A DNA stretch of 64,000 nucleotides from Octopus vulgaris (taxonomy: Eukaryota), in the NCBI GenBank assembly GCA_951406725.2, contig OX597821.1, positions 76,570,001 through 76,634,000 of the forward strand, written 5' to 3'. Shown here piece by piece: positions 9,127-62,231 of the stretch (positions within the stretch are counted from its first letter, which is position 1; the number at the start of each line of letters is the position of its first letter). The notes beneath the pieces were generated by a model. That model saw only the letters and a list, made by a program, of their open reading frames with translations, searched no databases and had not been told where the DNA came from. Made by a program: the position numbers and the translations under genes.

Positions 9127-9371
9127 TAGAAATTCGGCAAAGAATTTTTGAAGGATTCGGTTGTGTTTTTTCACGTGAGCTAAAATATTGTTAAAATTGT
9201 GTTGAAATTGTTTGTTTAAAAATTGTTTGTTAAATTGTTATACTGAACTTTAACTGGTTTTTGAACCAGGAAAACTTTGTTATTCCCCTCCTTTAAGGAG
9301 GGGAAATAGTGTGAAATATATTGTGTGTTTTGACACAATCTAACAAAAAAAAAAATCCATTTGTGTGAAAA

Positions 9372-10857
9372 TGGAAAAAACAGTTGAACATTTTGCCAAT
9401 GAAGGTTCACCTTCAAATAAAAGAAAATATTGTAGGTTCACCTACAAAGGAAAAAAATATGATGAAAGCAGAAAATTCGGAAACAAGTGTACCAGCAGTT
9501 GAAAACGTGAAAAAAACGGTTAACTTCGCAACCGCAGCCGGCAGAAAAACCGAACATATTTTACCAGAGGACATTGATTACGACAAATACAAGGACAGGT
9601 ACAAAAGGGAGGGGAACAACATAAAAGCCACCCTCCCACAAGAAATAAAAACCAGCACCATGAAGAAAACGGTAATTTTTAAATCTTTTGTAATTAAGGA
9701 AAGAAAAATAGAAAAAATAACAAAGGAGCAGGCCGAAAAGTGTCTCAAACCAATATGGACAGACATTGATTTCGTTACATGGGGTAAGAAGTATGCAACC
9801 ATAATGGTTTACTTTAAAGAGGAGGAACAGGCGAGGAAACACTCGATCAACCCTCTAAAATCAACAGATATAATTCTTCTCCCCTCGTATATGGGAAGAA
9901 GAACAATAAAAATCAAAATAGACGACATACTACCAGAAATTGAGGTAGAAAGCCTCATTCCAGCCCTATTTATGGGACTGAAAGAAAAAATTAATATCAT
10001 AAACATCGTCAGAACCCAGAAGGAGAATTGGAAGGGACAAGCTTTACAGATAATAGTGCAAGCGGCGCCGGAAACGTTAGGAGGTGCCCGAGTTTATTAA
10101 TTTCGACGACGAAATAAACTTGCGGGTGGTGGTCGAAGGGCGTAAGCCCAGATGCTACGGGTGTGGAGAAAAGGGCCACATCCGAGCAGAATGCCCCACC
10201 CGCAAGAAAGAAGAAGAAGAAGCAAGGAAAAAAGCTGAAGAAGAGGAGAGGAGGAAGAAAACGACAAACAGAAGAAGGAAAAAAACAAGAGGGGGATGAC
10301 GATTTCGTGATACCCAGAAAAATGAAAAAAGGAAAAATACGGACCTAAATATACCCAACAATAGCACAAAAAAGAGTAACACCCAGGAGGGGAAACCCAC
10401 CCCACCCAAACACGGTTCCTCCACAAAAGGAAAAAAAGATAAGACCCCCCCAGACCAACACGAATCACCCCCACCCCACAGTACCATACATTACCCTCCC
10501 CTCCAAATGACCTCCCCGTGCTCCTCCCCTACATACTCCCCAAACTCCTCATTCCCCTCCTCCCCATCACCCCCACAAAGCCCCCAAAAGAAAATCACGG
10601 AGTTCCAAGTAGTTTATGCAGCCATCAACAAAGACAACGACAGTGTAAGCAGCGGGATGGGAAACATCCCAACCGCTGAAAAAATACAAACACACAGAAA
10701 AGTTTTAAAAAATGTAGAAATATACAAAATGGATTTGCTAAACTTTAATATTTTAAATGCGCAGTATTCAGGGGACATAAGGGGTCCGCGGCTCGATGTG
10801 GACGAGTCACTTATTAAAGCGGACTTCAACCCCCGACCAACAGGGACACCGACATAA
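9372..10857 (+). pseudogene. Tx1 ORF1 (gag-like, CCHC knuckle), frameshifted
   Basis: ORF pieces 9384-10100, 10084-10299 (CYGCGEKGHIRAEC) and 10507-10857 are collinear with ORF1 of copy 2. Confidence 0.85.
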
Positions 10858-10867
10858 AGGTAAGTAA

Positions 10868-13800
10868 ATGTCTCGTATTTGTGTAGGATGCGTAAATGTG
10901 CGTGGCCTGATGGCGAGCTGGAAGCAAGGGCGCTTCCTAAATGACATCAGGTCACGGGATTTAGATGTTGTTGCCACAGAAACCCGGTTAAAGGGGCCAA
11001 GAGATCTGCTCCCGCTGTTCGACGGTTACGAGAGAATTATCTCTCCGAACCCGTCGGTCGGTGGAAGTGGGGTGTTGGTCCTGGTGAAAAAGAACCGGGT
11101 TTCTGGGAAAAAGTTGATTTTTGCAGATCCAGAAGGTAGGCTGGTCGTCGTTGATTTGACGTTCAGCAGTCGTAAGACAATCAGACTGGTAGCGGTTTAC
11201 GCACCCAATAATAAGGGGAATAGTGAGTATTTTCGGAACCTGGAGAAGTTTCTCAGTACATCGTGCCCTTTAGTAATGTTAGGAGACTACAACACAATCT
11301 GCAATGTGCGGGTAGACTGTGTAGGCTCGCAAACAGACAGGAAAGGAAATGCTTGCTTCCTGGATCTACTAAGACGTTTTGAGCTGGTAGATCCATATAG
11401 ACTGGAACATCCGGACGCTCCATTGTGGACATGGACAAACAGCGACGGATCGTCAAGGTCATACATAGACAGGATTTTAATTAGGAAGGTAGATAGAAAC
11501 CTAGTTAAGAGTCCACAGCTCCACAGTCAGCTACAGTGACCACAAGATGGTCACTTGTAAGCCAGACGTAGATAAGATAAATAGAGGTCCTGGTTACTGG
11601 AAACTTAATACGTCCCTTTTGGCGATTAAGGAGTAGAGTGACAGGATTAGGTTAACGATCCAGAGGGCCATGACCGGCTCCATTATCAATAACAAATGGT
11701 GGTATGCCCTCAAGCGAGCCATAAGATATGAGTCTATTAGATATAGTATAGATCTCGTAGCTAGAGAGGCTAGAAAAGAAACTACTCTAGTTAAGGACCT
11801 AGAGGAAGCAATGCGAACTGGCAACGCGGTTCAGGTGAAGGCCAAGAGACTGGTTTTAAACCAGCACCTCGAAGCCAAACACATGGGTTGTATTGTCAGA
11901 GCTAGACAACGTACAATGGGGAGCGAAGGAATTAATGCCGCGAGATGGGCCCGAGTGGTGGAAGCCCAACGTGGCAACGATGACACAATTCGATCTCTGA
12001 CGAACCAACAAGGTAAGTTGACAGACGAGCCCGAGGAGATGTGTCAAGCTTTTCAGGACCACTTCGCCCAGCTCTTTGGGGGTGGCGGCGGGCCGGATGA
12101 GAGGAGGGACCTTACGGACCTCCTTGACGGACTGCCGCGGCTCTCGGGGCAGGATGCGGAGTGTAGTGAGAAGCCGATCACGCCTGAGGAGGTAATAGAG
12201 GCCATGGCAGACTGCGGTGCGGGTAAGGCGCCGGGGCTGGATGGTCTGCCCTACGAGCTTTATAAAAGTGTGCCGGACTTGTTCGGGGACTTACTGGCGA
12301 ACGTCTACGCGAACTGGCAGCAGAATGGGTTCATACCCAGATCTGTGCGCCGGGGAGTGGTGACACTAGTCAGGAAGGACCAGAGCAAGGGGGACGTCAT
12401 TGATAATTTCAGGCCCATCACTCTGCTTAACGCAGAGTTGAAGATTATGGCCAAAGTGTTATCGAACAGATTGGCGCATGTCGCGAATGGACTGATCTGG
12501 AAAGCGCAAACGTGCGCCGTACCGGGCAGAACCATTCAGGATAATCTCCATCTAATTAGATACACGATAGAGGGAATGGGTAACGATCCCGGCGTGGGAG
12601 GGGCAGTGGTCCATTTAGACCAGTCAAAAGCTTTCGATAGGGTCGACCATCGTTACCTGGTGTCCGTCCTGGCTCAGTTCGGCCTGGGTCTTGGCTTCCT
12701 CAGGTGGATCATACAATTGTATGACAACGTCGACTCGGTAGTTCGGGTGAACGGCTTTATTTCTAAGCCGTTCAAGGTCAAACGCTCGGTCCGTCAGGGA
12801 TGTCCGCTCTCCCCGCTTTTGTATGTAGTGGCTCTCGAGCCGCTGCTGCGAAAACTGAGTGGCATCCCGAGGCAGCCAGGTCGTGGAATGTCGGTTTCGG
12901 CGTACGCGGATGACATCACTATCATCGTGACCGAAATGGACCTCCTACGTAAAGTAGGCAAGGCCATAGAGGTTTACGAGACGGTGACAGGAGCAAAGGT
13001 TAATCGTGAAAAGTCAGTCGGCTTGCAACTCGGCACCTGGAGAGGCAAGTCGATGCCTCCAGACAGCGTCGTGGGACGTTGGACGGAGGGCCCGATTAAG
13101 TTGCTCGGGGTCTGGTTCGGACCAGGCCTCCAAATAGAGAAGAACTGGAGCGAGGTATCGAGCAGGGTGACCGCAGTAGTCAAGACCTGGTCTTGGCGGT
13201 GGTTATCCCTGAAAGGTAGGGCGGAGGTAGCCAATGTGTTCATCGCATCGGTGATCACCTACCGCCTTGCCGTCGTGCCTTGCCCGGATTCGTGGTTGAA
13301 CAAGTTGGAGAGACAGCTCTTTCACTTTTTGTGGAAGGGCTCGAAACCACTTGTGAAACGCTCTATTTGTTGTCAAAAACCGTTACAGGGTGGACTAGGG
13401 ATGCCGTGGCTAATGATGCGCAGAAATGCGCTGAGGCTAAGGCATCTGTGGCTCCATCTGGATGGTGAACGGGTGTGGTCTCCGCTGGCGAAGCAGATGT
13501 TCCCCAGGTTCACCAGTTTCGGTGGACGGGAAGACTGGTATAATCGTAGATCAAAGTTGGGTACATGGTACACGGAGTGCCGTAAGGCACTCCGACTATT
13601 CCGTCGCTCGGGCAATGCCTGCGGCAGTGGTTCTACCGCTGTGTTTTACAGAGGTTTTGTAGAGGCCGGTAACGATGATACGCTAGGGGAAACCCTAGGT
13701 TTCGACGATAATCAGCTGGCCAGTCTGTTCCAACGTACATTCGGGCCGAAGGCACTGGATAATTTCCAGAAGTCTTTGGCTTGGCAGTGTTACCGAGGAG

Positions 13801-14255
13801 CCTTACCTGTTCGAGATAAACTCGCAAGGCATGGTGCCCCAGTCAGCCCGACCTGCGCGAGATGTGGGCGAGATAGGGAAACCGTCTCGCACGCGATCGT
13901 GCAGTGCCCGGAGGTGACAGACATGTGGGTTTATGCCGAACAACTGATGTCAAGTGGAGGAAGAGTACAGCTATCAGCCGAATCCATTGTGAAAATCAGC
14001 CCACCTGATTTCTTAACGAAAGAAGGTAAGAATTGTTTTCTCTCTCTGGTTTCAATTGCGAAACAGGCAGTATGGAAGACGCGGGTGAAAGGGATGCTAA
14101 CAGGCGACTTCATCTCCGGTTCTAGTCTGGTGGAATACTTCAAATTCCACCTGAAAAGACAAATAGAACTGGAGAGGAGGAGCCTGAGTAAGAAAGTGTT
14201 CGATGAAAGGTGGAAGAATGTGGCGAATAAAAGGTCCCTCACAAATGCGAGATAG
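10868..14255 (+). pseudogene. Tx1 ORF2: APE endonuclease + reverse transcriptase + zinc finger; small frameshift near 11525 and a stop near 11633
   Basis: NVRGL, VYAP, GDYN, IDRIL, SDH; PGLDG, FRPITLLN, LDQSKAFDRV, RQGCPLSP, AYADD; CARC...H...C; 861-aa open stretch. Confidence 0.92.
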
Positions 14256-14506
14256 ACCTGGAAAAAAAGTAAACACAAGTCTAAGTGTCGTGGCGGGGAG
14301 CGTGGGGTCCGCGGACCCGCCCCACTGCATTCTGTCAATTTGTAAATGTGTCTTTGTAATTGTAATTGTAATTTCATTCGATTTTATTGTTCAGTCAAAT
14401 TTTTAAATTGATCCCACAAAGCATCTTATTGTATCATCATTCGTGATTGTCATGTTCTTGTCTATGTCGCCCCTAGTGGGTAATAAAGAATTTTGCTTTG
14501 TCTTTT

Positions 14507-17500
14507 GGAGGTCGGTTGTGTGTTGAAAGTAAGCTAAAATATTGTTAATAATTGTGTTTGATTTACCTTGTTGAAAATTTGTTGTTAAAACGTTGTTTTG
14601 AAAATTTGACTGGTTTGTGAACCAGAGAACTTTGTTATTCCCCTCCTTTAAGGAGGGGAAGTATTGTGAAATATATATTTTGTGTGTTAACACAATTTAA
14701 CAAAAAAAAAAAAAAAATACATATATCCATTTTTGTGAAAATGGATAACAAAAAAGTAATTACCAATGAAGGTTCACCTTCGAAGGAAAAGAATGTAGGT
14801 TCACCTACAAAAGGAAAAATTGTAGGTTCACCAAAAGAAAACAAAGCAGGAGAACCTGAAACAATTTCACCGACAATTGAAACGGAAAAAAAAAACGTTC
14901 AACTTTGCCGCCGCAGCAGGCAGGAAGACAGGACATCGACCCAGAAGAAATAGACTTCGAAGAATACAAGGAAATGTATAAGAGGGAGGGAAACAGCATA
15001 AAGGCTACCCTCCCCAAAGAAATCAAAACAAACACGATGAAGAAAATAGTGACTTTTAAATCGTTCCTAATCAAGGAGAAAAAAATAGGAAAAATTACAA
15101 AAGAACAGGCAGAAAAATGCCTAAAACCAATTTGGGCTGACATAGAATACGTTACATGGGGAAGGAAGTATGCCACAATTGTGGCATACTTCAAAGAAGA
15201 AGAAAAAGCGAAGATTCATTCAATCAACCCCATTAAAACGAATGAAATTATTCTTCTCCCCTCCTATATGGGGAGGCGTACATCGAGGATCAAAATAGAA
15301 GAGATCCCGATTGAAATTGAAGTAAAGAGCCTCATCCCAGCCCTATTCATGGGGCTGGAAGGAAAAATAAAAATTATCAACACAACCAAGATTAAGATGG
15401 AGAATTGGAAGGGACAGGCGCTGCAAGTAATAGTGCAGGCAGCGCCAGAGACGTTAGAGGAGGTCCCCGAAAGTATCGACTTCGATGACGACATAAACTT
15501 GCGGGTGGTGGTGGAGGGGCGTAAGCCCAGATGCTACGGGTGTGGCGAAAAGGGCCACATCCGAGCAGAATGCCCCGCCCGCAAGAAGGAGGAAGAAGAA
15601 GAGAAAAACAGAAGAAGAGGAGAGGAGAAAAATATAACAGAAGAAGAGAAAACACAAGACGATTTCGTAACGCCAAGGAAAGTAAAAAAAAGGAAAAACA
15701 CAGACATGAACACACCAAACCCTGGCATAAAAAAGACCAACACCCAGGGAGGGAAACCCACCACCCCCAAACACGGTTCCCCACAAAAAGGAAAAAATAT
15801 AGGACCCCCCCAGACTAACCCGAACCACCCCACAGTACCCAGCATTAGCCTCCCCTCCAAACGTCTTCGCCGTGCTCCTCCCCGGTCTCCCCCTCCTCCC
15901 CATCACCCCCACAAAGGCCACAAAAAAGAGTTACAGAATTTCAAATAGTATATGCTGCAATAAATAAGGACAACGACAGACTTAGAAACACAATTGGAAA
16001 CATACCAAGCGCGGGAAAAATAAAAACCCATAGAAATCTACATGAAAATGTAGGAATTTACAAATTGGACCTTTTGAACTATAACATAATAAACGCACAG
16101 TTTGCAGGGGACATAAGGGGTCCACGACTCGGATTGGACGAGTCACTGATTAAAGCGGACTTCACCCCACGACCAACAGGGACACCATTGTAAGGTAAGT
16201 AAAATGTCTCGTATTTGTGTAGGATGTGTAAATGTGCGTGGCTTGATGGCGAGCTGGAAGCAAGGGCGCTTCCTAAATGACATAAGGTCACGGGATTTAG
16301 ATGTTGTTGCCACAGAAACCCGGTTAAAGGGGCCAAGAGATCTGCTCCCGCTGTTCGACGGTTACGAGAGAATTATCTCTCCGAACCCGTCGGTCGGCGG
16401 AAGTGGGGTGTTGGTCCTGGTGAAAAAGAACCGGGTTTCTGGGAAAAGTTGATTTTTGCAGATCCAGAAGGTAGGCTGGTCGTCGTTGATTTGACGTTCA
16501 GCAGTCGTAAGACAATCAGACTGGTTGCGGTTTACGCACCCAATAATAAGGGGAATAGTGAGTATTTTCGGAATCTTGAGAAGTTTCTGAGTACATCGTG
16601 CCCTTTAGTAATGTTAGGAGACTACAACACAATCTGCAATGTGCGGGTAGACTGTGTAGGCTCGCAAACAGACAGGAAAGGAAATGCTTGCTTCCTGGAT
16701 CTACTAAGACGTTTTGAGCTGGTAGATCCATATAGACTGGAACATCCGGACGCTCCATTGTGGACATGGTCAAACAGCGACGGATCGTCAAGGTCATACA
16801 TAGACAGGATTTTAATTAGGAAGGTAGATAGAAACCTAGTTAAGAATCCACAGCTCCACATAGTCAGCTACAGTGACCACAAGATGGTCACCTGTAAGCT
16901 AGACGTAGATAAGATATATAGAGGTCCTGGTTACTGGAAACTTAATACGTTAGATTAAGGAGTACAGTGACAGGATTAGGTTAATGATCCAGAGGGCCAT
17001 GACCGGCTCCATTATCAATAACAAATGGTGGTATGCCCTCAAGCGAGCCATAAGATACGAGTATTAGGTATAGTATAGATCTCGTAGCTAGAGAGGCTAG
17101 AAAAGAAACTACTCTAGTTAAGGACCTAGGCACTGGATAATTTCCAGAAGTCTTTGGCTTGGCAGTGTTACCGAGGAGCCTTACCTGTTCGAGATAAACT
17201 CGCAAGGCATGGTGCCCCAGTCAGCCCGACCTGCGCGATATGTGGGCGAGACAGGTAAACCGTCTCGCACGCGATCTTCCAGTGCCCGGAGGTGACAGAC
17301 ATGTGGGTTTATGCCGAACAACTGATGTCAAGTGGAGGAAGAGTACAGCTATCAGCCGAATCCATTGTGAAAATTAGCCCACCTGATTTCTTAACGAAAG
17401 AAGGTAAGAATCGTTTTCTCTCTGTGGTTTCAATTGCGAAACAGGCAGTATGGAAGACGAGGGTGAAAGGGATGCTAACAGGCGACTTCATCTCCGGTTC

Positions 17501-17860
17501 TTGTCTGGTGGAATACTTCAAATTCCACCTGAAAAGACAAATAGAACTGGAGAGGAGGAGCCTGAGTAAGAAAGTGTTCGACGAAAGGTGGAAGAATGTG
17601 GCGAATAAAAGGTCCCTCACAAATACGAGATAGGCCGTAAAGGAAAAACACAAGGCTAAGTGTCGTGGCGGGGAGCGTGGGGTCCGTGGACCCGCCCCAC
17701 TGCATTCTGTAATTTTGTAAAACTGTCTATGTAATTGTGTAATCCTTCGATTTTATCTATCATTCAGATTTTTAATTCACCCCAAAAAGCATATAAATGT
17801 ATTTCATCATTCGTGATTGTATCGTAAGTTCTGTGTCGCCCCTAGTGGGTAATAAAGAAA
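14507..17860 (+). mobile_element. Tx1 LINE copy 2 with the RT domain deleted
   Basis: ORF1 (about 14741-16193, frameshifted) and endonuclease (from 16204); junction CCTAG|GCACTGG near 17130 joins the equivalents of copy-1 positions about 11802 and 13752; same 3' tail. Confidence 0.9.
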
Positions 17861-17883
17861 TAGAAATTCGGCAAAGAATTTTT

Positions 17884-18628
17884 GAGGACGTCGGTTGTTA
17901 TTATTTGAACGCGCGTGAAATTGTAAGTTGCAAAAATTGTTGTTGAATTGTTGTACGTTTGTTGATACGGTTTCTTGTTATACTGTTTCTGTTCTGGTGG
18001 CCGTTGTATGTCTGTGTTGAGACAGACAAAAGGATATGGACCACCCCTCCCTAATGGAAGAGTCGGAGGAGGAATGGTTATTCGAGACCTTGTCAGAAGC
18101 ATCGACCTCTGAGGACGAGCTGATCGGCGCTGTGAATATTATGGATATTAAAACCGGGAAAACGTACGCTGGAGCAGCAAAAAAAAAAAAAACCACAGAG
18201 GAAAAGGAGATAAACCTAGAAAAATTGCCAGGTTTTCAAGCATACATAACTAAAGGTGATGAGGTAGAACTACTTCCAGAGAAACGAGAAGACTGGTTTA
18301 TGAAGATAATTATAAAATACCGGACATATGGAAAAGATAAAGTAGAAATAATAAAAATGGAAGATATTGAGGAGGCGCTAAGGAGAGGAGGAAGAAATCA
18401 CATTCATGGCAAGAGGAAACGAGTTCGGAACTATAATAGCGCAATTTGAAAACAAAAATATAGCAAGGAAAATGGCAACGAAGACAATAAAAACTGAAAA
18501 AGTAATATTATTACCATCTTACATGAACCAAAGAATAAATAGAATAAGAGTTGAAGGGATACCCCCCCCCCCCCACATAGAGGGTGAATGGATCGTCGCG
18601 GCGATAATAAAAGATTTGGAAGAACCAA
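17884..18628 (+). mobile_element. 5' part of a third Tx1-related element (ORF1 family of 25518-27145), 3'-truncated
   Basis: LFETLSEASTSEDEL...TYAG...LEKLPGFQ...LLPSY aligns with ORF 25687-27048. Confidence 0.8.
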
Positions 18629-18629
18629 G

Positions 18630-19272
18630 TCATCCGCAACCAAGTAAGCCCCTCTGAAATCAACAACTGGAGATCTCATCAAGGACCAAAGCAAGAAAAT
18701 GGATACATGGGTGGAGTACTACCAGGATCTGTACTCACGGGGTCCACGGCAGCTGAGGCTGCAATCGAGGGTGTCAAGATCTTGCCAGTCATGTATGAAC
18801 TTGGCAGTCTGCCATCTATAGCAGAGCTCACCAAGGCGATTGACTCTCTAGCAAATAACAAGGCTCCGGGAAAAGACGGCATCCCCTTAGATATCATCAA
18901 AACCGGCAAAAAACACCATCCTGCGTCGGCACCTTCATGAGCTTCTGTGTCTGTGCTGGGAAGAGGATACAGTCCCTCAGGATATACGGGATGCAAACAT
19001 TACGCTTTAGAAAAACAAAGGTGACCATGGTGATTGTAACAATTACCATGGAATATCTCTCCTAAGCACTGTTGGAAAGGCCTTTGCTCCCATTATCCTG
19101 TCCAGGCTACAACTGCTTGCTTCTCGAATTTATCCAGAATCGCAGTGTGGCTTTAGAAGAAGCAGATCAATTATTTACATGATATTCTCCATACGCCAAC
19201 TTCAGGAGAGGTCCAGAGAGCAGAAAATGCCGTTATATATGGCCTTCATTGATCGGACAAAGGCCTTTGACT
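18630..19272 (+). mobile_element. RTE-clade LINE reverse transcriptase fragment
   Basis: KAPGKDGIP, KNKGD..DCNNYHGISLLS, PESQCGFR, IFSIRQLQE, LYMAFID..KAFD. Confidence 0.85.
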
Positions 19273-20765
19273 TGGAATGGGAGGTTGTCCCACCCAAGCA
19301 GTGGATTGAAAGTCTTGAGAAGAGGACGGTGGTCCTACGAACCTATTCTAGGTCGCGTGGAGCTATCGCCCTCTTCGACAGGAGCACCATTGAGAAGGAG
19401 TTGGGGGTACCACCTACCAACGATAAAATTTATTTCTCGGGGGAATAAATTTGCAACGGTGTGGTTGCTATTTGATACCCCCGAGGAAGCTAGCAGATTT
19501 GCTAGCGAGCCACTGGAGGGAGAGGAAATTTTGTTCCTCCCCTCGTATTGTGGCAGAAAAGTGAAAGAGCCTGGGTGTGTGGGCTGCCCCCGGGCACGGA
19601 GGCGGAATGGATCGAGAAGACCATCCGGTGAGGCCTGGGGGATAGCGGACCCACACTACTGAGTGTGAAAATGGCTCCCGCGGTCGCTTGGGAGGGGTCA
19701 AAGGCTACTTTGACCCTGTGGACGCCGGTGGCCGTGGGAGAAATGAAATTCCCGGACTTCCTGAGAATGGCTGGGCACAGGTACCCGGTGATACTCGAGG
19801 GTCGCTCCCCCCCCCAAGTGTCACCTGTGCCTGAAGCCCGGACACATCAGGAAGAATTGTCCCGGGGGCCGTGGTGGTGCCCCGGAGCAGAAAGGGGAAA
19901 AGGCGCCCGCCGCCCCCTCATTGGAGGGGGAGACGGTGGAAATCGTGGAGGAGGTTGCCTCCACGAAAAGAAAGAGACAGGCGAGCAACAATGGTTGCCC
20001 GCCAAAGAACGCTCAGGTGGCGGAGGGGGATAGCAATCCCCCGTGTCTGGTGACGGAGTCCCCTGGGTCAGCAGTCTCCCCCAAAAGAAGGAGGAGAAAA
20101 AGGAGAGGTCGGACGACTGACGTTTCTGTGTCGCCGACGGAGCCGCGGGTGGGATGTGTGCCACCCGCGGACAAGGCTCCGCCAGTAGGAAGTGTGCCAC
20201 TGACGGAGAAGTGTGAGGTCCCTTCCTGTGAAGAGGAGATGCTTCTCCTCCTTTACCACAAGGGAGAGGAGGTGGAAAGATTTTTGAATGGCTTGGGTGA
20301 CCGAGAACGCAAGGGCACGGTCGGCTCAAGGAGTCCGTTATGGCCTCCGCGGGTAGCTTCGGAAAAAGTAACGGAAGATATTTTGTCAAGGGTCGCAGAG
20401 ACCTTTGAGAGGAAAGATTTTACTTTTCTCTTTGCAGGCCCCGACTTGTCGTCGCAGAGTTGTCTGCAGGTGGCAAGACAATTTGCTTCGGGGACCTGAC
20501 GAGGAGAATTGTTGAACATTTTTTTGTAAACATGTTGAAGAGGAGGGTTATTGCCTCCTCTAAAATATGTAATTTGAATCATTGTGAACATTTTATTAAA
20601 TGTATTTATTGAAACATTGTTTTAGAGAAGCGATAGTCGGCGGGCGCTTTCGACTTCTCCCATCACCATCTTCATCCACCACCACCATCATCATCCATTA
20701 ATGTCCTTGTCCAGCCCGTAGCTACTATGTGTGCTGCCCTAGTGGCAAATTATATAAAATAAAGT
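19273..20765 (+). mobile_element. 5'-truncated ORF1-only Tx1-derived element (second family), frameshifted
   Basis: ISRGNKFATV, FLPSYCGRK, VILEGR..KCHLCLKPGHIRKNC; stop at 20499, short UTR with hairpin, tail GCCCTAGTGGC...AATAAAG; no ORF2. Confidence 0.7.
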
Positions 20766-21594
20766 AGAAAAAGCCTCTTCATCCTGCTCAAAAAATCGGA
20801 TGTAAAAGGTTCAGAGGATCACCAGAGCCCTGGGCGACTGTCCACAGTCGACGCTATGGCTTGGCTTGGCATGGCAGAAAGAAAGAATTTAAATTATATA
20901 TAGAGAACTATAGTGCGAAGGCAGCATAAAAAACAACCCTTCCTCAGTTGTTGGCAGTTTTACCTACTCCGTGTTGTGAGCATTGCAACGAGATGTCTTC
21001 GTCAAAGCAATTGCTCCCCCAAAGCAAATAAAATAAAATTTGAGATACGTGGAACGTCAAAGCTGCTAACAAAAACAGGACAGTGAAAACATTCGGTAAG
21101 GGCTGTTTAACCCTAACGAGGTGAAGTGGTGACCGCTGGAGAAAAAAAGCTTTGTCAAGAGAGACAAGAATGCGTGTTATAGTTATAAACTGAACGAGAA
21201 GAAAGAGAATTACACTTAGAAATAAAGATCTATAATTATTGAGGACAGAATTTCAGTTAGAAATAGAGAACTATAAATATTGAATTATGCATAAAGTGGT
21301 GGCTTACATTCGGGGCTTCAAATTTCCCTGTAAAATAGAAGATAATCGCAAAATCATCGCACATGTCACCATCGATTACAAACACCGGTGGAAGATAAAA
21401 GTTCCAGAGGACATTCTTGTTCTTTCACTCGTACAAGGATCGTATTATGTTTCGGCTTAAAATAAATTATAGATACAAATATAATGTATAGAAATATATA
21501 AAAACCAGAATAGAAAATAAACGTCTTAGACATATAAAATGAGATATCAAGCTGTAATAAACTTGAAACCTACTAGAATATCATAGATTATAAA

Positions 21595-24135
21595 TCATGT
21601 CATCCAATCAGTTCTGTCCGATTTTACCTTTTTTAGATTTGAATGAAATTTAATAGTATTTTCAAATATCTAATTCAATTAAAAATTACTTTTATGCATT
21701 TGTGTACGTTTAAACTAATTCAATATTGTTTTACGTACATGGGGATTAACACATACTTTTAAAACAATACAATTCTATTTAATTATAATGTTAATAAATA
21801 ATATTTTCAAAGTGATTTCCATCATTTTCAATGCATAACTTGATGAGCCTGGCAAAATTCAGTTGAACTTGATTAAATAAGTCTACATTGCCATCAATTT
21901 CAGCACACTGACTGGTAATGCGTTCTCGTGTGTTTTAAATCTGTAATCTTTATTGAGTAAACTTTCTCTTTCAACATACCCCAGAAAAAGAAATCAAGGG
22001 GAGAAAGTTCTGGTGAACGAGGGGACCATTCCAAACGACCCCTTCTTCCAATCCAGTGAGGAAAAGTGTCATTAAGCCAATCTAACATTTGTGGCAAAAT
22101 GGGTAGGGGCCGCATCCTGCTGAAACCAATTCGGAAAGCCCTCGCCTAGGCACCCAATTTGAGATATTAATTTGTCTCAATATGTTTACACAAGTCTCAT
22201 CCGTTACATGTTCAATGAAGAAGGGTCCTAGAACATGAGCTTTCCGCAAACCAGACCACCCTATCACCTTTTTTGCTGCCTTGCTGTTTGGATGGATCCA
22301 TCTAATGTGGATTACCTCGAGACCAGTATAGAAGATTGTCTGTTGACCTCACCATTTACATAAAACGTAGTTTTGTGAGTGAACAACTCGAAGTTTTTCG
22401 TAAAATTGATATTTTCATCCAATTTATTTGAAAACCATTCGCACGTCTACATTCGTCTATCAGGGTCGTCTTCATTTAAGTGATGCAATATATGTAGGTT
22501 GTATCGATGAAACTTTTCCTCAACCAGCATTTTGTGGATCGTTGGTTTTGGAACACCTAACACCGTGGATGTCCGACGAAGTGATTTCTTTGGGCTAGCA
22601 GAAACTTTAGCCATGACAGCCTCTTTCGTTTCATCTAAAGTCTTGGGTCGCCCGGAACGGGGTTTATCCAAAACACTGCCTGTTTCTTTAAATTTCTTGA
22701 TCAATTTCCCGACGGCAGTAAAATAAATAAATTGCCTTTAAGGGTGTCGAAGATTAAATTCTTCCGCAATTTTGCGATAAGACCATCCCTCTCGTTCACT
22801 TAATTATACTAACTCGATTCTTTCTTCTTTAGACAGATCCATCATTCGATCTGGGATTCTTTCTTCTTTAGATAGAGCCATCATTCGATCATCTGTAGAA
22901 AAAATAAATAAATTTATAAAAGTAAAGTATTTTTTTAAAAATTTAAACAAAAGTAAAAAAGGAAAATTATTATTTCTTCTATTTATTTGTTTATGTTATG
23001 ATTTTATTCCATGAACCCAGACTTCGTGGACACCCTAAAATTGCCTTGATTAAAACCTTTTCAACATGGAAGTATCCAAGGAGCATTTAAGGAACATATA
23101 ATTCTTTATGAGTACAATAAAGTTAACTCTGCAGCCGAAGTGACTCGAAACATACACTCAGTTTATGGGAAAGTGCTTGAATGAACGAACTTGCAGGAGA
23201 TCGTTTGCAAAATTGAAGATGAAGATCGAACAGGACGTCCAGTTGAGTTTGATAAGCTCCTTGAGGCATTACTTGAAGAAAATCCGTCATTATCAGTTGA
23301 AGAATTGGCAATAAAGCTTACTTCAAACCATACAACAGTTCATCGTCATCTTCAACAACGTGGAAAGATTCCTAAACTTGGAAAATAGGTGCCTCATGTA
23401 TTGTCCGAAAGCAACCGCAAATCCCGAGTTGACATCTGCTCTTCTCTCCGTTCTCGCAAACTCATTTCACCCTTTTTCGACAGACTTGTGACGAAAAATG
23501 GATTTTCTATCGAAATGTTAAACGTCGTAAACAGTGGCTTGGTAAAATGGAAAATGCTCAACCATAAAGAGAAGGGAACCTTACGGGAAAAAAGGTTCTA
23601 CTCTATCTGGTGCGATTGCAAAGGCGTAATTCACTTTATATTGTTACCACCTAATGCAACAATCAATGCTTAAGTCTACTGTCAGCAATTAGAGCGTTTG
23701 AACCAAGCTTTGAAGGAAAAAAATGCAGCTTTAGTGAGTCGAAAACAAGTGATGTTTCATCAGGACAATGCGCAACACCACACTGCAAAGATTACATCAC
23801 AGAAGATCGAAGAGGTCGGCTTGGAAAAATTTCTTCATCCAACTTATTCTCCCGACCTTACTCCTTCAGGATACCATTTGTTGCATAGTTTACAGAATTA
23901 TTAGGGGGACACAACTTTCGCAAGCCAGGAGGAGGTCTAACCTGACATTTCAGAGTTCTTCGCTTTGAAGCCAAAAGAGTTTTACATTGATGGGATTAAA
24001 AAGCTTGTAAATAGATGGAAGTAAGTCATAGATAATCAGGGAAAGTACATTGATGATTAACTTTCAATTAAATATAACATTTGATCACTTATATTCTTTA
24101 TCCAAAATTCGGACAGAACTTATGGGATGACCTGA
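21595..24135 (+). mobile_element. mariner (DD34D) transposon, degenerate, with a nested insertion
   Basis: TIRs TCATGTCATCCAATCAGTTCTGTCCGA / TCGGACAGAACTTATGGGATGACCTGA; transposase remnants about 23067-24060 (GRP, VPHVL, QDNA, YSPDLTP..YHL). Confidence 0.88.
21735..23037 (-). mobile_element. Tc1/mariner transposon of DD41D (rosa-like) type, degenerate, nested in the mariner 5' UTR
   Basis: KFKETGSVLDKPRSGRP, QQDAAP, WIGRRGRLEWSPRSPELSPLDFFFWG; one TIR clear at about 23010-23037, the other partial. Confidence 0.8.
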
Positions 24136-24735
24136 GATATATACACTGGTGAAAATATATTTAAGACCGACGATAAAAGTTCTATTTCTTACAAAGTATT
24201 TTGTTACTAAACACCATACAAATTATTTTTATCTTTTACACCGTATGCAAAATTTATTTCTCTTTCGAATGATGCAGACAATAACTATTTTGATACAACT
24301 TGAAGAATTTTAATGCTAAATATAAACGTTTCAAATTTAACGGCAAAATTAGTTTAAGACAATGTAATATGTATGCAATTTTTTTGGCCAAAATGGGTGG
24401 TCACACAACGAGCCTAAATGCACCATATAAAGTTATAATTTAATGTTATTATACAATTTATTAATAATGGGAAAACAACGTAGCCTTAGTCCAGTCACGA
24501 GAGCAAAATTCGTATATTACAGCAAAAAGTTTCCTTTTAAGAACATCAGCAAGCAACAAAAGTGCAGTAAACCGGCTTGCGCGCAAGCGTGGAAGTTAAA
24601 ATGTGTTATACGATAAAAATTTCGGCTATTTGTCTTAAAACATTCAGACAAGAAAATTCAGATGTAGCACATGAGGTATTATTCCATACGAATATCCACA
24701 TATGTTAAGAGTTTCATGATAAAAATATAGAAATA

Positions 24736-25302
24736 TTGGGTTGTCCGGAAAGTTCGTGCCGATTTATAGTAGCTTAACTTTCGACTTATTTTAGAACATG
24801 TTTGAGTCAATAAAATAGGATTTGACTACATCTCCATTTAGAGCACAGTTTAAGCTATCTTTTCGTGGAAGAAGTTTTATGTTCCTATAACCTGTATTAA
24901 TTCTGTAACCCTTTAAAATAAAAGATGAGAAAGTTCATTTTCGGCACTTGATGCTTTGGGAACCAGACATAAATTGCTGCTGCTCGGCTGGGATGCGTTA
25001 TCCCCATCCTCCTTATTCCCCAGATATTACTCCTTCGGATTTCCACTTATTCAGGTCTCTGCAGAATAGTCTTCATGGTGAAAATTTAAATTCCTTAGAT
25101 GACGTAAAAAGATACCATGAAGAATTCTTTGCCTTGAAACCACCCCAATTCTGGGAAGAGGGTATTTTCAAGGTAAAGAAAAGATGGAGACGAATTGTGC
25201 AACGAAATGGTTCAGATTTGGTTCATTAAAAATGTAATGGCAAGTATTTATTGACCTTTTATTTTCCTTTAAAAATCGGAACGAACTTTCCGGACAACCC
25301 AA
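24736..25302 (+). mobile_element. Internally deleted mariner (non-autonomous), copy 1
   Basis: TIR TTGGGTTGTCCGGAAAGTTCGTGCCGATTT, TA TSD, residual HPPYSPDITPSDFHLFRSLQ. Confidence 0.92.
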
Positions 25303-25517
25303 TATAAACATAACAATGAAATACGAATATAAACATGAAAAATAAAAACCTAAATTGAAAGAGGCGATTAAAATTTTTTTCCTAACCTGCAGCCGTATCA
25401 GAAAAGTGGTTGTACGAAGTATTCGAAATTCAGCCCTCCTTCCTCAGGGTTCCTTTCTCGAGGTAAGATCCAGCAAAAATCGTTAAGGCACTACATGGTG
25501 AAAGTTCAGTTTTCTGA

Positions 25518-27145
25518 TTTTTTTATTACTCACGAGGGGCTACATAGAGGGGACATAGAACATCAATTACATAAATATGGGTAAATGAATTAATGAAAAT
25601 GATATATGAAAGCGACGCTAACGGCCCCATCCGCTAGCATCACTTACCTGTCCTTTAGTTATTAGTCCCAAACGAATGCTCCTTGTTCAGTTCCTATAAA
25701 AAAATCCATCCATCTCCATCCTTCTCTCAAACGTCTCTTCCAAATCCCTCATGATTTTTTCGACCATTCTCACTTCACTTACTTCCCAATCCCCCCTTTC
25801 ACACATTACCATAAACTCGTCCATTCGTTCTTTTCCAATTACTGCATATCTGATCGGTCCTCTGTCACACCATTGATATTCTTCCATTGTCTTTTTAATC
25901 TTTTCTTTTCCCGTCATACATACAATGTTGGGCCTGGGTTCATTTTTTGTATCTTGGTATTGTGTGTCTTTTCTTTTCTGTTTTCTTGTTGGAGGGGAGC
26001 GGGTGGGTTCACTGTCTGCAGGGAGAGGGTGGGACTCAGAGGGTGTGGTTGGTGTTGGGGTGGATTGAGGTTCCGCACTGTTTACTTTTCCTCTTATTCT
26101 TCTCTTCCTCTTTTTCCGGGCTTCTTCCCATTCTTTTGAAACTTCTTCTGTTGTCTCTTTCTCTTCTGATTTCTGCACTTCTTCCGCCTCTCTTTGTGGT
26201 TCCGCATCCATATTTTTCTCTGGAGGAGGGCAGTTAGCTCTTATGTGGCCTCTCATGCCACACTTATAACAGCGCGGGGCTCTGCCCTCCACCCACACTC
26301 TCATGATGATGTTTCCCATTCTTATATTTTCTGTTAATCTTTCTAGCGTTTTGGTCTCTGCCTGTGCGTTCATATCCAGGGTAGCACCCCCCCAGATTTC
26401 ATAATTTATGGTGGCATGGAGGATGTCTACCTTTTCTTCATTTCCCTTAATTACAGCTGCTGCTATATATTCGCCCTCTAGGTGTGGGGATATTCCCTCC
26501 ACCCTGATTCGCGTGGTTTTCCTGTTTAGGTATGAAGGTAGCAGGTATACCTTCTCCGTTCTTACTGCCTTGGCTGTCATTTTTCTTGCGACGCTCTCGC
26601 TCCTATATTGAACCGTCACTGTCCCGTATTCCATTCCTCTTGTCAAATAAACAATTTCCTCCTCTGTCTGTTTTAGCGCCTCTTCAATAATTTCCATGCT
26701 TACTATTTCAATTCTTTTTCTTCCATTTGCGTACACTCTATATTTGACGGTCCTGCGATCGAACCACTCACCACGCTTTGTTGGAGGTGACAGTTCGACT
26801 TCACCGTCCTCCTCTTTCATAAATTCCTGGAAGCCTGGCAGTTTAACCAGGTCTACCTCTTTTTCTTCCGACTTCTTCTTCGTTACTCCTGCATACGTAT
26901 TTCCAAGCTTCTTATCCATTCTTTTCACTGCTCTTTCTAGTTCCTCCTCAGACGTCGACAATTCCGACAAACTTTCAAACAAATTATTCCTGGCCATCTC
27001 TCCCGTTAGGGAGGAGCAGTCCATTTTTCTCCTTGTCTGTCTCAACACAGACAGACAACAACCAAAATCCTCACACCTAAACGTTCAACAATAATAAATT
27101 CGACAATCAGCAAACAGTCAGCAGCTCACAAAAAAGTCAACCTAG
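25518..27145 (-). mobile_element. ORF1-only non-autonomous Tx1-derived retroelement ('half-Tx1')
   Basis: T/G-rich 5' UTR, single intact ORF1, about 170-nt 3' UTR ending GCCCCTCGTGAGTAATAAAAAAA; no endonuclease or RT. Confidence 0.85.
25687..27024 (-). CDS. Intact gag-like ORF1 protein with CCHC zinc knuckle (445 aa from the first ATG)
   Basis: Uninterrupted ORF; LLPSY, VEGRAPRCYKCGMRGHIRANC; homologous to ORF1 of the Tx1 copies. Confidence 0.85.
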   Translation of the reverse strand: MDCSSLTGEMARNNLFESLSELSTSEEELERAVKRMDKKLGNTYAGVTKKKSEEKEVDLVKLPGFQEFMKEEDGEVELSPPTKRGEWFDRRTVKYRVYANGRKRIEIVSMEIIEEALKQTEEEIVYLTRGMEYGTVTVQYRSESVARKMTAKAVRTEKVYLLPSYLNRKTTRIRVEGISPHLEGEYIAAAVIKGNEEKVDILHATINYEIWGGATLDMNAQAETKTLERLTENIRMGNIIMRVWVEGRAPRCYKCGMRGHIRANCPPPEKNMDAEPQREAEEVQKSEEKETTEEVSKEWEEARKKRKRRIRGKVNSAEPQSTPTPTTPSESHPLPADSEPTRSPPTRKQKRKDTQYQDTKNEPRPNIVCMTGKEKIKKTMEEYQWCDRGPIRYAVIGKERMDEFMVMCERGDWEVSEVRMVEKIMRDLEETFERRMEMDGFFYRN

Positions 27146-27785
27146 ATTTTCAAGTGACGTTTAAATAAGAAATGAAATTCATTGAAATGTTAACTTTAGT
27201 TAATCATGCAAAAAAAGCCAATTGGAATATTCCACTCTGTAATGATATATACTACAATAACAAAGAAATTATTTTAGATTTGTGCATAAGTATTCATTGG
27301 ATCTAATCCAGATAGTATTTTCAAAAAGCTTTACAGTTTTATATTTTAAAAATTTAATTTTAAAGTTTAAGAAAATCATAAGACGCTAAATATTTATGCT
27401 TACAACATACTAAAATGTCTGTAATTTTATTTAATTATATGTCTTTATTTCTATTACTAGCGTATAGTATGCTACTCGATTCCTTGATGCAAAGCCTATA
27501 CGATTTAGTATATTTGTTCTATGGTGTTGATTCGTTAATTATACTCAATGTTAGACTGTATGAGGTGGTTAATGTATGATGCTAAAGTCATGGAATTTTT
27601 TTATATAGGGGTGAATAAATGAACTCTTGTGTCCCATATATCTAATGTGTATACATGTATATACATGTATGTCTAGATGTATATATATAGATGTACATGT
27701 AATATGTACACATATATATATATGCATACATATATACACCCATACACACATACACACACACACACACACACATACATACATAAGT

Positions 27786-34844: not shown

Positions 34845-36130
34845 CCGGAAACGTTAGCACACCGGGCGAAATGCTTGGCGCTATTTCGTCTGTTCTAACG
34901 TTCTGAGTTCAAATTCCACCGAGGTTGACTTTGCCTTTCAGTTACGCACTGGGGGTCGATATAATCGACTTAATTCCTTTGTCTGTCCTTGTTTGTCCCC
35001 TCTGTGTTTAGCCCCTTGTGGGTAGTAAAGAAATAGCTATTTCGTCTGTTTTAACGTTCTTAGTTCAAATTCCACCGAGGTCGACTTTGCCTTTCATCCT
35101 TTCGAGGTCGATTAAATAAATACCAGTTACGCACTGGGGGTCAATATAATCGACTTAATTCCTTTGTCTGTCCTTGTTTGTCCCCTCTGTGTTTAGTCCC
35201 TTGTAGGTTGTAAAGAAATAGCTATTTCGTCTGTTTTAACGTTCTTAGTTCAAATTCCACCGAGGTCGACTTTGCCTTTCATCCTTTCGAGGTCGATTAA
35301 ATAAATACCAGTTACGCACTGGGGGTCAATATAATCGACTTAATTCCTTTGTATGTCCTTGTTTGTCCCCTCTGTGTTTAGCCCCTTGTGGGTAGTAAAG
35401 AAGTAGCTATTTCGTCTGTTTTAACGTTCTGAGTTCAAATTCCACCGAGATCGACTTTGCCTTTCATCCTTTCGAGGTCGATTAAATAAATACCAATTAC
35501 GCACTGGGGTTGATATAATCGACTTAATTCCTTTGTATGTCCTTGTCTGTCCCCTCTGTGTTTAGCCCCTTGTGGGTAGTAAAGAAATAGCTATTTCGTT
35601 GTTTTAACGTTCTGAGTTCAAATTCCACCGAGATCGACTTTGCCTTTCATCCTTTCGAGGTCGATTAAGTAAATACCAGTTACGCACTGGGGGTTGATAT
35701 AATCGACTTAATTCCTTTGTCTGTCCTTGTTTGTCCCCTCTGTGTTTAGCCCCTTGTGGGTAGTAAAGAAGTAGCTATTTCGTCTGTTTTAACGTTCTGA
35801 GTTCAAATTCCACCGAGATCGACTTTGCCTTTCATCTTTTCGAGGTCGATTAAGTAAATACCAGTTACTCGCCTTAATCGACTTAATTCCTTTGTATGTC
35901 CTTGTTTGTCCCCTCTGTGTTTAGCCCCTTGTGGGTAGTAAAGAAATAGCTATTTCGTCTGTTTTAACGTTCTTAGTTCAAATTCTACCGAGGTCGACTT
36001 TGCCTTTCATCCTTTCGGGGTCGATAAATTAAGTACCATTTACGCACTGGGGTCGATGTAATCGAATTAATCCCTTTGTCTGTTCTTGTTTGTCCCCTCT
36101 ATGTTTAGCCCCCTGTGGGCAATAAAGAAA
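34845..36130 (+). repeat. Tandem array of about 7 SINE family B units (period about 184 bp)
   Basis: Units restart with CTATTTCGT at about 34880, 35037, 35222, 35407, 35591, 35774 and 35950. Confidence 0.9.
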
Positions 36131-36491
36131 TATTATTGATGATGATGATGATGATGATGATAAATATATACAAACTATAAAAAAATATATACAGTACTGT
36201 TGTACTTCGCGGATTTTCACCTATCGCAGCGGTTGTGGGGTACGTAACACCCACGATAGTGGTGAGGTTACTGTAGTATCTTCTATCTTTGACTTGTTTC
36301 AATCGACTGCGGCCATGCTGGAGCACTACCTTGAATTTTTGATCGAATGGATTGATCCCTAGTACTTATTTCTATCTTACGCCTGGTACTTATTCTTTGT
36401 CGAACAGGGACGTAACCACACTAACTGGTTGTCAACCAGTAGTGGGGAACAAACGCAGACACAGACACACACACTCACATGCATACATGCA

Positions 36492-59884: not shown

Positions 59885-62231
59885 GATCTCTTTCGGCACC
59901 ATCTTTGATCTTTTTCGGCACACACTTTGATCTCTGTCGACACCCCCTTTGATATCTGTCGACACCCCTCTTTGATCTCTGTCGGCACCCCCTTTGATCT
60001 CTGTCGGCACCCCTCTTTGATCTCTGTCGGCACCCCTCTTTGATCTATGTCGGCATCCACTTTGATCTCTTTCGGTACCTCCTTTGATCTCTGTCGGCAC
60101 CCCTCTTTGATCCCTTTCGGCAACCCTTTGGTCTCTCTCGGCACCCCTCTTTGATCTCTGTCGGCACCCCTCTTTGATCTCTGTCGGAACCCCCTTTGAT
60201 CTCTGTCGGCACCCTCTTTGATCTCTGTCGGCACTCCCTTTGATCTCTGTCGGCACCCCATTGATCTTTGTCGGCACCCTCTTTGATCCTTGTCGGCACC
60301 CTTCTTTGATCTCTATCGGCACCCCTCTTTGATATCTTTCGGCACCCCTCTTTGATCTCTGTCGACACCCCATTTGATCTCTGTCGGCACCCCCTTTGAT
60401 CTCTGTGCATCCCTCTTTGATCTCTGTCGACACCCCCTTTGATCTCTGTCGGCACCCTTTTTGATCTCTGTCGGCACCCTTTTTGATCTCTGTCGGCACC
60501 CCTCTTTGATCTCTGTCGGCACTCTCTTTGGTCTCTGTTGGCACCCCCTTTGGTGTCTGTCGGCACCCCTCTTTGATCTCTGTCGGCACCCCTCTTTGAT
60601 CTCTGTCGGCACCTCTCTTTGATTTCTGTCGGCACCCCCATTGATCTCTGTCGATACCCTCTTTGATCTCTGTCGGCACCCTCTTTTATCTCTGTCGATA
60701 CCCCTCTTTGATCTCTTTCGGCACCCTCTTTGATCTCTGTCGGCACCTCTCTTTGATTTCTGTCGGCACCCCCATTGATCTCTGTCGGTACCCTCTTTGA
60801 TCTCTGTCGGCACCCTCTTTGATCTCTGTCGGCACCCTCTTTGATCTCTGTCGGCACCCCTTTGATCTCTGTCAGCACCCCTTTGATCTCTGTGCATCCC
60901 CTTTGATCTCTGTCGGCACCTCTCTTTGATCTCTGTCGGCACCCCTCTTTGATCTCTGTCGGCACCCCTCTTTGATCTCTGTCGGCACCCCCTTTGATCT
61001 CTGTCAGCACCCCTTTGATCTCTGTGCATCCTCTTTGATCTCTGTCGGCACCCCATTTGATCTCTGTCGGCACCCCTCTTTGATCTCTGTCGGCACCCCT
61101 CTTTGATCTCTGTCGGCACCCCTCTTTGATCTCTGTCGGCAACTTCTTTGATTCCTGTCGGCACCCCTCTTTGATTCCTGTCGGTACCCCTCTTTGATCT
61201 CTGTCGGTACCCCTCTTTGATCTCTGTCGGCACACTCTTTGATTGCTGTCGGCACCCCTCTTTGATCTCTGTCGGCACCCCTTTGATCTCTGTCGGCACT
61301 CCCTTTGATCTCTGTGCATCCCTCCTTGATCTCTGTCGGCACCCCTCTTTGATCTCTGTCGGCACCCCTCTTTGATCTCTGTCGGCATCCCTTTGATCTC
61401 TGTCGGCACCCCTCTTTGATCTCTGTCGGCACCCCCTTTGATCTCTGTCGGCACCCCTCTTTGATCTCTGTCGGCACCCCTCTTTGATCTCTGTCGGCAC
61501 CTTCTTTGATTCCTGTCGGCACCCCTCTTTGATCTCTGTCGGTACCCCTCTTTGATCTCTGTCGGCACCCTCTTTGATCTCTGTCGGCACCCCTCTTTGA
61601 TCTCTGTCGGCACCCCCTTTGATCTCTGTCGGCACTCCCTTTGATCTCTGTGCATCCCTCTTTGATCTCTGTCGGCACCCCTCTTTGATCTCTGTCGGCA
61701 CCCCTCTTTGATCTCTGTCGGCACCCCTTTGATCTCTGTCGGCACCCCTCTTTGATCTCTGTCGGCACCCCCTTTGATCTCTGTCGGCACCCCTCTTTGA
61801 TCTATGTCGGCACCCCTCTTTGATCTCTGTCGGCACCCTCTTTGGTCTCTGTCGGCACCCCCTTTGATCTCTGTCGGCACCCCTTTGCTCTCTGTCGGCA
61901 CCTCTCTTTGATTTCTGTCGGCACCCCAATTGATCTCTGTCGGCACCCTCTTTGATCTCTGTCGGCATCCCTCTTTGATCTCTGTCGGCACCCCTTTTTG
62001 ATCTCTGTCGGTACCCCTCTTTGATCTCTGTCGGCACCCTCTTTTGTCTCCGTAGGTACCCGTCTTTGATATCTGTCGGCACCCCCTTTGATCTCTGTCG
62101 GTACCCCTCTTTGATCTTAGTCGGCACCCTCTTTTATCTCTGTCAATACCCCTCTTTGATCTGTCGGTACCCTCTTTGATCTCTGTCGGCATCCCTCTTT
62201 GATCTCTGTCGGCACCCCTCTTTGATCTCTG
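59885..62231. repeat. Minisatellite, 21-23 bp unit TTTGATCTCTGTCGGCACCCCTC, roughly 100 copies
   Basis: Direct inspection. Confidence 0.97.

Follow-up and report, generated by a model that had tools for sequence, protein, structure and literature searches.

Non-autonomous LINEs that keep a first open reading frame (ORF1) are known from several clades, and the accessible part of PMC5786205 names HeT-A (Jockey), HAL1 (L1) and Ag-Sponge (CR1), with no mention of Tx1 there. HAL1 of mammals, defined in the available portion of PMC5753468, is a non-autonomous LINE derivative that encodes the ORF1 protein (ORF1p) only and that has arisen several times (PMC5753468, PMC5786205); both properties recur in the ORF1-only elements of the octopus described here. 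However, HAL1 belongs to the L1 clade, whereas the octopus element has a Tx1-type ORF1 (two predicted RRMs and a CCHC knuckle) and a shared structured tail, and octopus elements, unlike HAL1, favor sites within repeats and form arrays. HeT-A of Drosophila is also ORF1-only, lies in head-to-tail arrays and has partners coding for reverse transcriptase (RT), with whose proteins its ORF1p is proposed to multimerize (PMC5786205). It is a telomeric element of the Jockey clade, whereas the octopus arrays are interstitial, lie in multi-copy repeats and have no evident host function. Ag-Sponge is likewise an ORF1-present, bipartite non-autonomous LINE, but of another clade, and the part of PMC5786205 at hand mentions neither a target preference nor arrays for it.

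Within the Tx1 clade, a preference for non-autonomous DNA transposons is described for Tx1L and Tx1D (Xenopus) and for Tx1-Mar and SINEU (crocodilians) in the accessible sections of PMC4494074, where a target preference is defined as more than 20% of flanks lying in one repeat type. As in the octopus, the SINEU passengers share the tail and target of their Tx1 helper, and transcription from the flank has been proposed for them; unlike the octopus passengers, which carry a selected ORF1 and fall into several deep lineages, they are non-coding and have snRNA heads.

Here, we analyze an ORF1-only element in a stretch of 64,000 nucleotides of the Octopus vulgaris genome (assembly GCA_951406725.2, contig OX597821.1, positions 76,570,001 to 76,634,000; hereafter, the window). 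By analogy, it appears to work like HAL1 and HeT-A and to target like Tx1-Mar. HAL1 had been put forward as its known analogue in a preliminary description made from the sequence alone, and the comparison holds as to the way of working, but HeT-A and Ag-Sponge are equally close. HAL1 was compared by description only, with Pfam finding only zf-CCHC in the octopus ORF1 and fold searches returning generic RRM proteins; we regard the element as one that probably works like HAL1 and do not file it as HAL1.

Results

The window copy is confirmed as a member of a multi-copy ORF1-only family that encodes a predicted RNA-binding protein and no copying enzyme. The 1.6-kb layout given in the preliminary description (5' UTR, ORF1, 3' UTR and Tx1-like tail, without endonuclease (EN) or RT) and its coordinates are right (Table 1). 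The open frame extends from stop to stop over 465 codons (25687-27084, minus strand), the 3' UTR between the ORF1 stop and the Tx1-type tail measures about 170 nt, and no EN or RT match was found anywhere on the element (25518-27145). Its tail, ending at 25518, resembles those at ~14490 and ~17860 of the local two-ORF elements, and its tail stem differs from that of most copies by one G-to-A change. No target-site duplication was detected at this copy (the best flank match is 7 nt), and the empty variant of the host repeat is compatible with a blunt insertion or a small target deletion. The CAG/GTAAGT motif in the 3' UTR has what we take to be the appearance of a 5' splice site. Reading GGTAAGT as the mere Gly-Lys-stop end of ORF1 is true for subfamily B1 but fails in the two-ORF elements, where the ORF1 stop precedes the motif.

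Table 1. Positions of the ORF1-only element, its parts and associated elements in the window
Feature	Position	Strand	Remark
ORF1-only Tx1-type retroposon copy (family A)	25518..27145	-	Without target-site duplication
5' UTR, ~120 nt	27025..27145	-	From sequence
Conserved inverted repeat within 5' UTR	27035-27056	-	Motif in 20 of 28 scored loci and in both loci set aside
ORF1, 445 aa plus stop	25687..27024	-	ATG at 27024
Approximate crossover between two subfamilies	26230..26330	-	100-nt identity windows
CAG/GTAAGT motif	25642..25650	-	In two-ORF elements, sits between ORF1 stop and ORF2 ATG
3' UTR hairpin with ATGGGG loop; possible pseudoknot with downstream C run	25610..25645	-	
Tx1-type 3' tail: short predicted stem-loop and A-rich end	25518..25562	-	Common to complete Tx1 elements
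Two-ORF Tx1 copy, candidate helper family member	9128..14490	+	ORF1 frameshifted; ORF2 broken between EN and RT
Second two-ORF Tx1 copy, in tandem	14491..17860	+	Internal deletion in RT
Host repeat X, unclassified composite, >4 kb, matched in pieces at 81-96%	20881..27428	.	Window element inserted within

Homology of the encoded protein to the neighboring Tx1 ORF1s, also claimed at the outset, is borne out by 32% identity over 277 aa to the frame at 14881-15945 (E 5e-33). Its portrayal as an uninterrupted zinc-knuckle ORF1 holds in part: there is a single open frame with a CCHC knuckle, but a T run one base longer than in copies L011 and L005 shifts the last codons by +1 out of the frame that those copies use, and the knuckle (PF00098; E 0.002, 18.5 bits) scores under the Pfam cut-off of 20.8. 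An RRM is predicted at residues ~81-168, followed by a second RRM-like domain to ~250, the knuckle at 251-266, a disordered linker and a small alpha/beta C-terminal domain (~362-445), for which the single-sequence fold reached a pLDDT of 43. The AlphaFold model built from 15 aligned ORF1s has a mean pLDDT of 67 and matches tandem-RRM proteins (best Foldseek E 2.6e-5; VIA match of residues 81-168 with Z 9.1, rmsd 2.4 and 81 aligned), and generic RRM proteins fill the lists of the whole-model fold searches. A search of public proteins returned a single partial match among 6408 candidates (271 aa, 14% coverage), which is an annotated O. vulgaris hypothetical protein.

The window copy is a mosaic of two subfamilies. 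Its 5' part is 91-99% identical to copies L002 and L003 in six of seven 100-nt windows, with one window at 85% for L003, and its 3' part (past ~26280) is 87-97% identical to L008, L011 and L016. Template switching between two half-element RNAs would be the simplest route to such a recombinant.

A DNA search of the same genome yielded at least 59 matches (40 scored of 702 candidates), the long ones at 75-85% identity, and a protein search gave at least 91 scored matches among 23,921 candidates, mostly to a sister group, B, at ~60% identity. The exact 37-base ORF1-to-tail junction occurs in 45 genome copies, and its reversed control in none. Thirty family A loci were fetched, of which two (L018 and L021) were set aside as interrupted; all 28 scored loci have the junction, and in 27 a tail was called 133-155 nt past it. 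Flanking duplications of 13-44 nt bracket 18 of the 28 loci, 4 of these (L010, L022, L029 and L030) in tandem or duplicated settings, and the other 9 loci with a called tail, the window copy among them, have flank matches of 7-12 nt only. Some of the C28 loci may be segmental duplicates. Many genome copies with the same junction and individual duplications show that the element is not a single-copy deletion product. For the core of ORF1 (residues 55-266, NG86, ten open ORF1s), dN/dS lies at 0.05-0.26 for 39 of 45 computable pairs; where dS is below 0.3, the range is 0.07-0.26. The comparison covers open frames only, and many of its pairs are saturated (dS > 1). The family ORF1 is shown to be under purifying selection.

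The A/B clade takes in 86 of 112 distinct stop-free ORF1 cores, and none of these 86 leads into ORF2 or EN: 66 end in a tail, and the remaining 20 are unresolved, with the locus ending or no motif found. Nine cores are followed by EN, all of them outside the A/B clade. Branch support is 92/93 for the A/B clade and 93/89 for the two-ORF branch, neither of them starred, and the tree shows the A/B ORF1s as a clade separate from all sampled two-ORF elements. The window ORF1 is only about 30% identical to that of any of these, and no two-ORF element with an A/B-type ORF1 was found among the four groups sampled; the autonomous parent of the A/B elements may have died out or may lie outside that sample. 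In a more distant RT group, 8 of 20 loci have an upstream ORF1, each scoring best to a two-ORF ORF1 and never to A/B. At L021, a mid-RT fragment without EN directly follows the hairpin and is joined to a half copy with an internal deletion. The multi-copy family with its fixed junction, together with the lack, among these cores, of any ORF1 of this clade followed by ORF2, supports the earlier interpretation of a non-autonomous family.

The tree holds three more ORF1-only lineages (C, D and E), ~25-30% identical to A and placed on long branches whose order is unsure. The window itself contains a second, frameshifted ORF1-only element of the distant lineage D (19200-20765, plus strand). This element has a hairpin and a tail of its own. 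It has two relatives at 83-84% on a different contig, and one of them (L137) has an open 413-aa frame. At 17860-18650 (plus strand), directly behind the second Tx1 tail, lies the 5' half of an A/B-like ORF1 element, which starts with the same ~25 bases as the Tx1 at 9128 and is cut off by a fragment reading like another LINE RT.

The candidate helpers encode in ORF2 an APE endonuclease, an RT and a C-terminal zinc-binding domain (PF03372, PF00078 and PF13966). Of 52 scored matches to the local RT frame, 37 are stop-free ORF2 frames of at least 1125 aa, so that a trans-mobilization assay needs no repaired ORF2. The Tx1 label of the helpers comes from the preliminary description and from target behavior that appears to match the available account in PMC4494074, rather than from RT phylogeny. 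Two-ORF elements also occur in tandem elsewhere (G000:C27, C30 and C22), with a period of ~5.27 kb. In the window, a 185-bp SINE-like unit is repeated 6.5 times in tandem at 34939-36132; it has the same Tx1-type tail and what is presumably a tRNA B-box-like motif, and is likely another passenger of the same enzyme.

Every family carries a 3' UTR hairpin whose loop is G-rich, and a run complementary to that loop lies close to the end. Loop and run can pair over 7 bp in two two-ORF groups, 48-49 nt from the end (18 of 19 and 10 of 11 ends), as CGGGGA/TCCCCG or longer in C (8 of 8 ends), as CGGGC/GCCCG in D (2 of 2) and over 4-6 bp in A/B, and the C and D loops pair best with the region of their own family. 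The shuffle fractions of three two-ORF groups lie at 0.001-0.03, and those of the ORF1-only lineages are 0.015 (C), 0.05 (E), 0.14 (D) and 0.17 (A/B), with 28 of 230 ends unclassified and 42 SINE-like ends left out. Since the controls give strong backing in the two-ORF groups but weak backing in A/B and D, we treat the pseudoknot as a hypothesis for which the pairings are suggestive only; the window copy lacks one of the two C runs.

Private substitutions in 76 B1 units include 45 A-to-G against 11 T-to-C changes, and three units have 9 private A-to-G changes apiece, with 0, 0 and 3 changes of other kinds. A-to-G changes are linked to ADAR editing, and the excess in B1 fits what would be expected of an edited RNA intermediate. 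Family A shows a weak excess over 20 copies (A-to-G 0.144 per site, G-to-A 0.165), except in L025 (17 against 13).

Target clustering is clear in two host repeats, X and H. Among 29 other loci of host X, 6 have a Tx1-type tail within ~65 bp of the same place, 3 of them with RT and 3 belonging to half elements, and one X copy contains four two-ORF elements followed by two half elements. Host X also includes mariner-like and SINE pieces, as a composite repeat of unknown class, and in its left arm (L184, ~1100-1170) a short stretch resembles what we take to be a GIY-YIG endonuclease motif of Penelope-like type. Host H is ~1 kb long, ends in a hairpin plus CTAG, a signature we assume to be Helitron-like, and is occupied within ~30 bp in 9 of 30 loci, the query having been taken from an occupied copy. 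It carries a captured, decayed Tx1-type ORF1 fragment (L152-L178), with the insertion hot spot at the start of that fragment. Judged by eye, family A also occurs in three other repeats and in unique-looking DNA, and is thus spread over at least four repeats and unique-looking sites.

Sister families form head-to-tail arrays of up to 17 units, which lie at fixed sites in repeats. In the 20 array regions fetched, 15 of them in host H, the junction lies no more than 200 nt from a tail in 119 units. In 12 of the 15 H arrays, a run of half units is closed by a two-ORF element; 3 have no Tx1. A view of the arrays as single concatemers pulled by a terminal Tx1 found no support: the outer ends have no joining duplication (longest match 10-11 nt in 4 of 4 arrays), and the H arrays without Tx1, as well as singly filled and empty host sites, speak against it. 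Sequential insertion, by which tandem copies arise according to the accessible text of PMC4494074, fits the octopus arrays better. Fragments of X or H target sequence often stand at the start of units, also where the unit sits at another site; this suggests that transcription begins in the flank, a mechanism put forward for SINEU and R2 (PMC4494074).

Discussion

As a whole, the family encodes ORF1 only, is multi-copy with a fixed structure and independent insertion marks, has an ORF1 under selection and shares its 3' end with an autonomous LINE, as do ORF1-present non-autonomous LINEs. The half element is probably mobilized in trans by the ORF2 protein (ORF2p) of complete Tx1-type elements, a reading to which the tail and the host repeat X, both common to half and complete elements, lend support. 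Pol II would transcribe the half element, often starting in the flank, where the 5' ends pick up pieces of other copies' target repeats; ORF1p would coat its own RNA; helper ORF2p would recognize the 3' UTR through the hairpin, the possible pseudoknot and the terminal stem-loop and prime reverse transcription at the target, so that the EN and RT of complete elements with the same tail copy the half-element RNA into new sites. Repeated insertion at one preferred site would then build the arrays.

It is very unlikely that the copies are instead processed products that splicing or recurrent deletion derived from an unsampled two-ORF element with this ORF1, and that do not replicate as a lineage. 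Two-ORF elements have the splice-donor-like GGTAAGT where ORF1 meets ORF2, and the half element has it at the corresponding position; this motif, the partial sampling of two-ORF families and the RT fragment right behind the hairpin of L021 would all agree with such an origin. However, the donor-like motif is retained rather than spliced out; EN follows none of the 86 A/B cores, and the 8 upstream ORF1s of the distant RT group all resemble two-ORF ORF1s best; the RT piece of L021 begins mid-RT, lacks EN and stands behind an internally deleted copy; and subfamilies without ORF2 differ by dS > 1 at low dN/dS. Least probable of the accounts considered is that the copies multiplied chiefly by riding along with their host repeats or through tandem DNA duplication, rather than by retrotransposition. 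The same 1-kb host flanks do recur in 15 of 20 arrays and junctions are near-identical in some (C5), but the site is empty in 21 of 30 host-H and 23 of 30 host-X loci, occupied host copies carry different elements at different offsets, family A copies are 15-25% apart where X hosts are ~95% alike, and several copies lie in unrelated flanks with their own duplications. Tandem duplication or passenger spread may explain local array growth, not the family.

The intact ORF1 of the window copy had been set against the frameshifted ORF1s of two-ORF copies, and both local two-ORF copies are indeed frameshifted. In the arrays, ORF1 is open in only 2 of 16 two-ORF copies against 7 of 16 for ORF2 (the junction pattern missed two more such copies), and 58 of the 119 half units are open. 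These counts could speak for mutual complementation, in which two-ORF elements, often without a working ORF1, use half-element ORF1p while the half elements use their ORF2p. Yet 61 of the 119 half units are broken too, and in 11 two-ORF copies with mapped indels, 25 of 33 frame-breaking ORF1 indels fall in homopolymer runs; the breaks are mostly one-base deletions in combinations that differ from copy to copy, and no single lesion is found in all of them. Such breaks more likely stem from assembly error or slippage, and the contrast between intact and frameshifted ORF1s therefore carries little weight. With one two-ORF copy having both frames open, and C1b looking open too by blastx, we consider complementation highly improbable, and one-sided borrowing of Tx1 ORF2p by the half elements remains the preferred reading.

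A wider scheme, that of a split and cooperative LINE, can be drawn as an unlikely extension of that reading. Four or more ORF1-only lineages (A/B, C, D and E), long-lived and deeply diverged, might coexist as a guild in this genome and retain a single RNA recognition fold, in which a G-rich hairpin loop pairs with a C run 34-50 nt from the end and which changes in a matching way in C and D. Template switching would let them exchange ORF1 halves, and they would provide two-ORF Tx1 elements with ORF1p while using the ORF2p of those elements.

No report of an ORF1-only Tx1 element was found in the openly accessible literature, and the accessible part of a 2026 octopus repeat paper (PMC13282606) has L1-Tx1 families only, with no ORF1-only Tx1. 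If our reading is true, Tx1 would join L1, Jockey and CR1 as clades with ORF1-only LINEs. In contrast to the old fossils of HAL1, many near-identical open copies and stop-free helper frames coexist in one genome, which makes it testable why a passenger that borrows ORF2 keeps its own ORF1 under selection. The 3' UTR comparison likewise provides a concrete candidate for the RNA structure recognized by a Tx1 RT. Elsewhere in the window, at 59885-62231, a 23-bp unit is repeated in 105 copies and gives rise to long spurious open frames.
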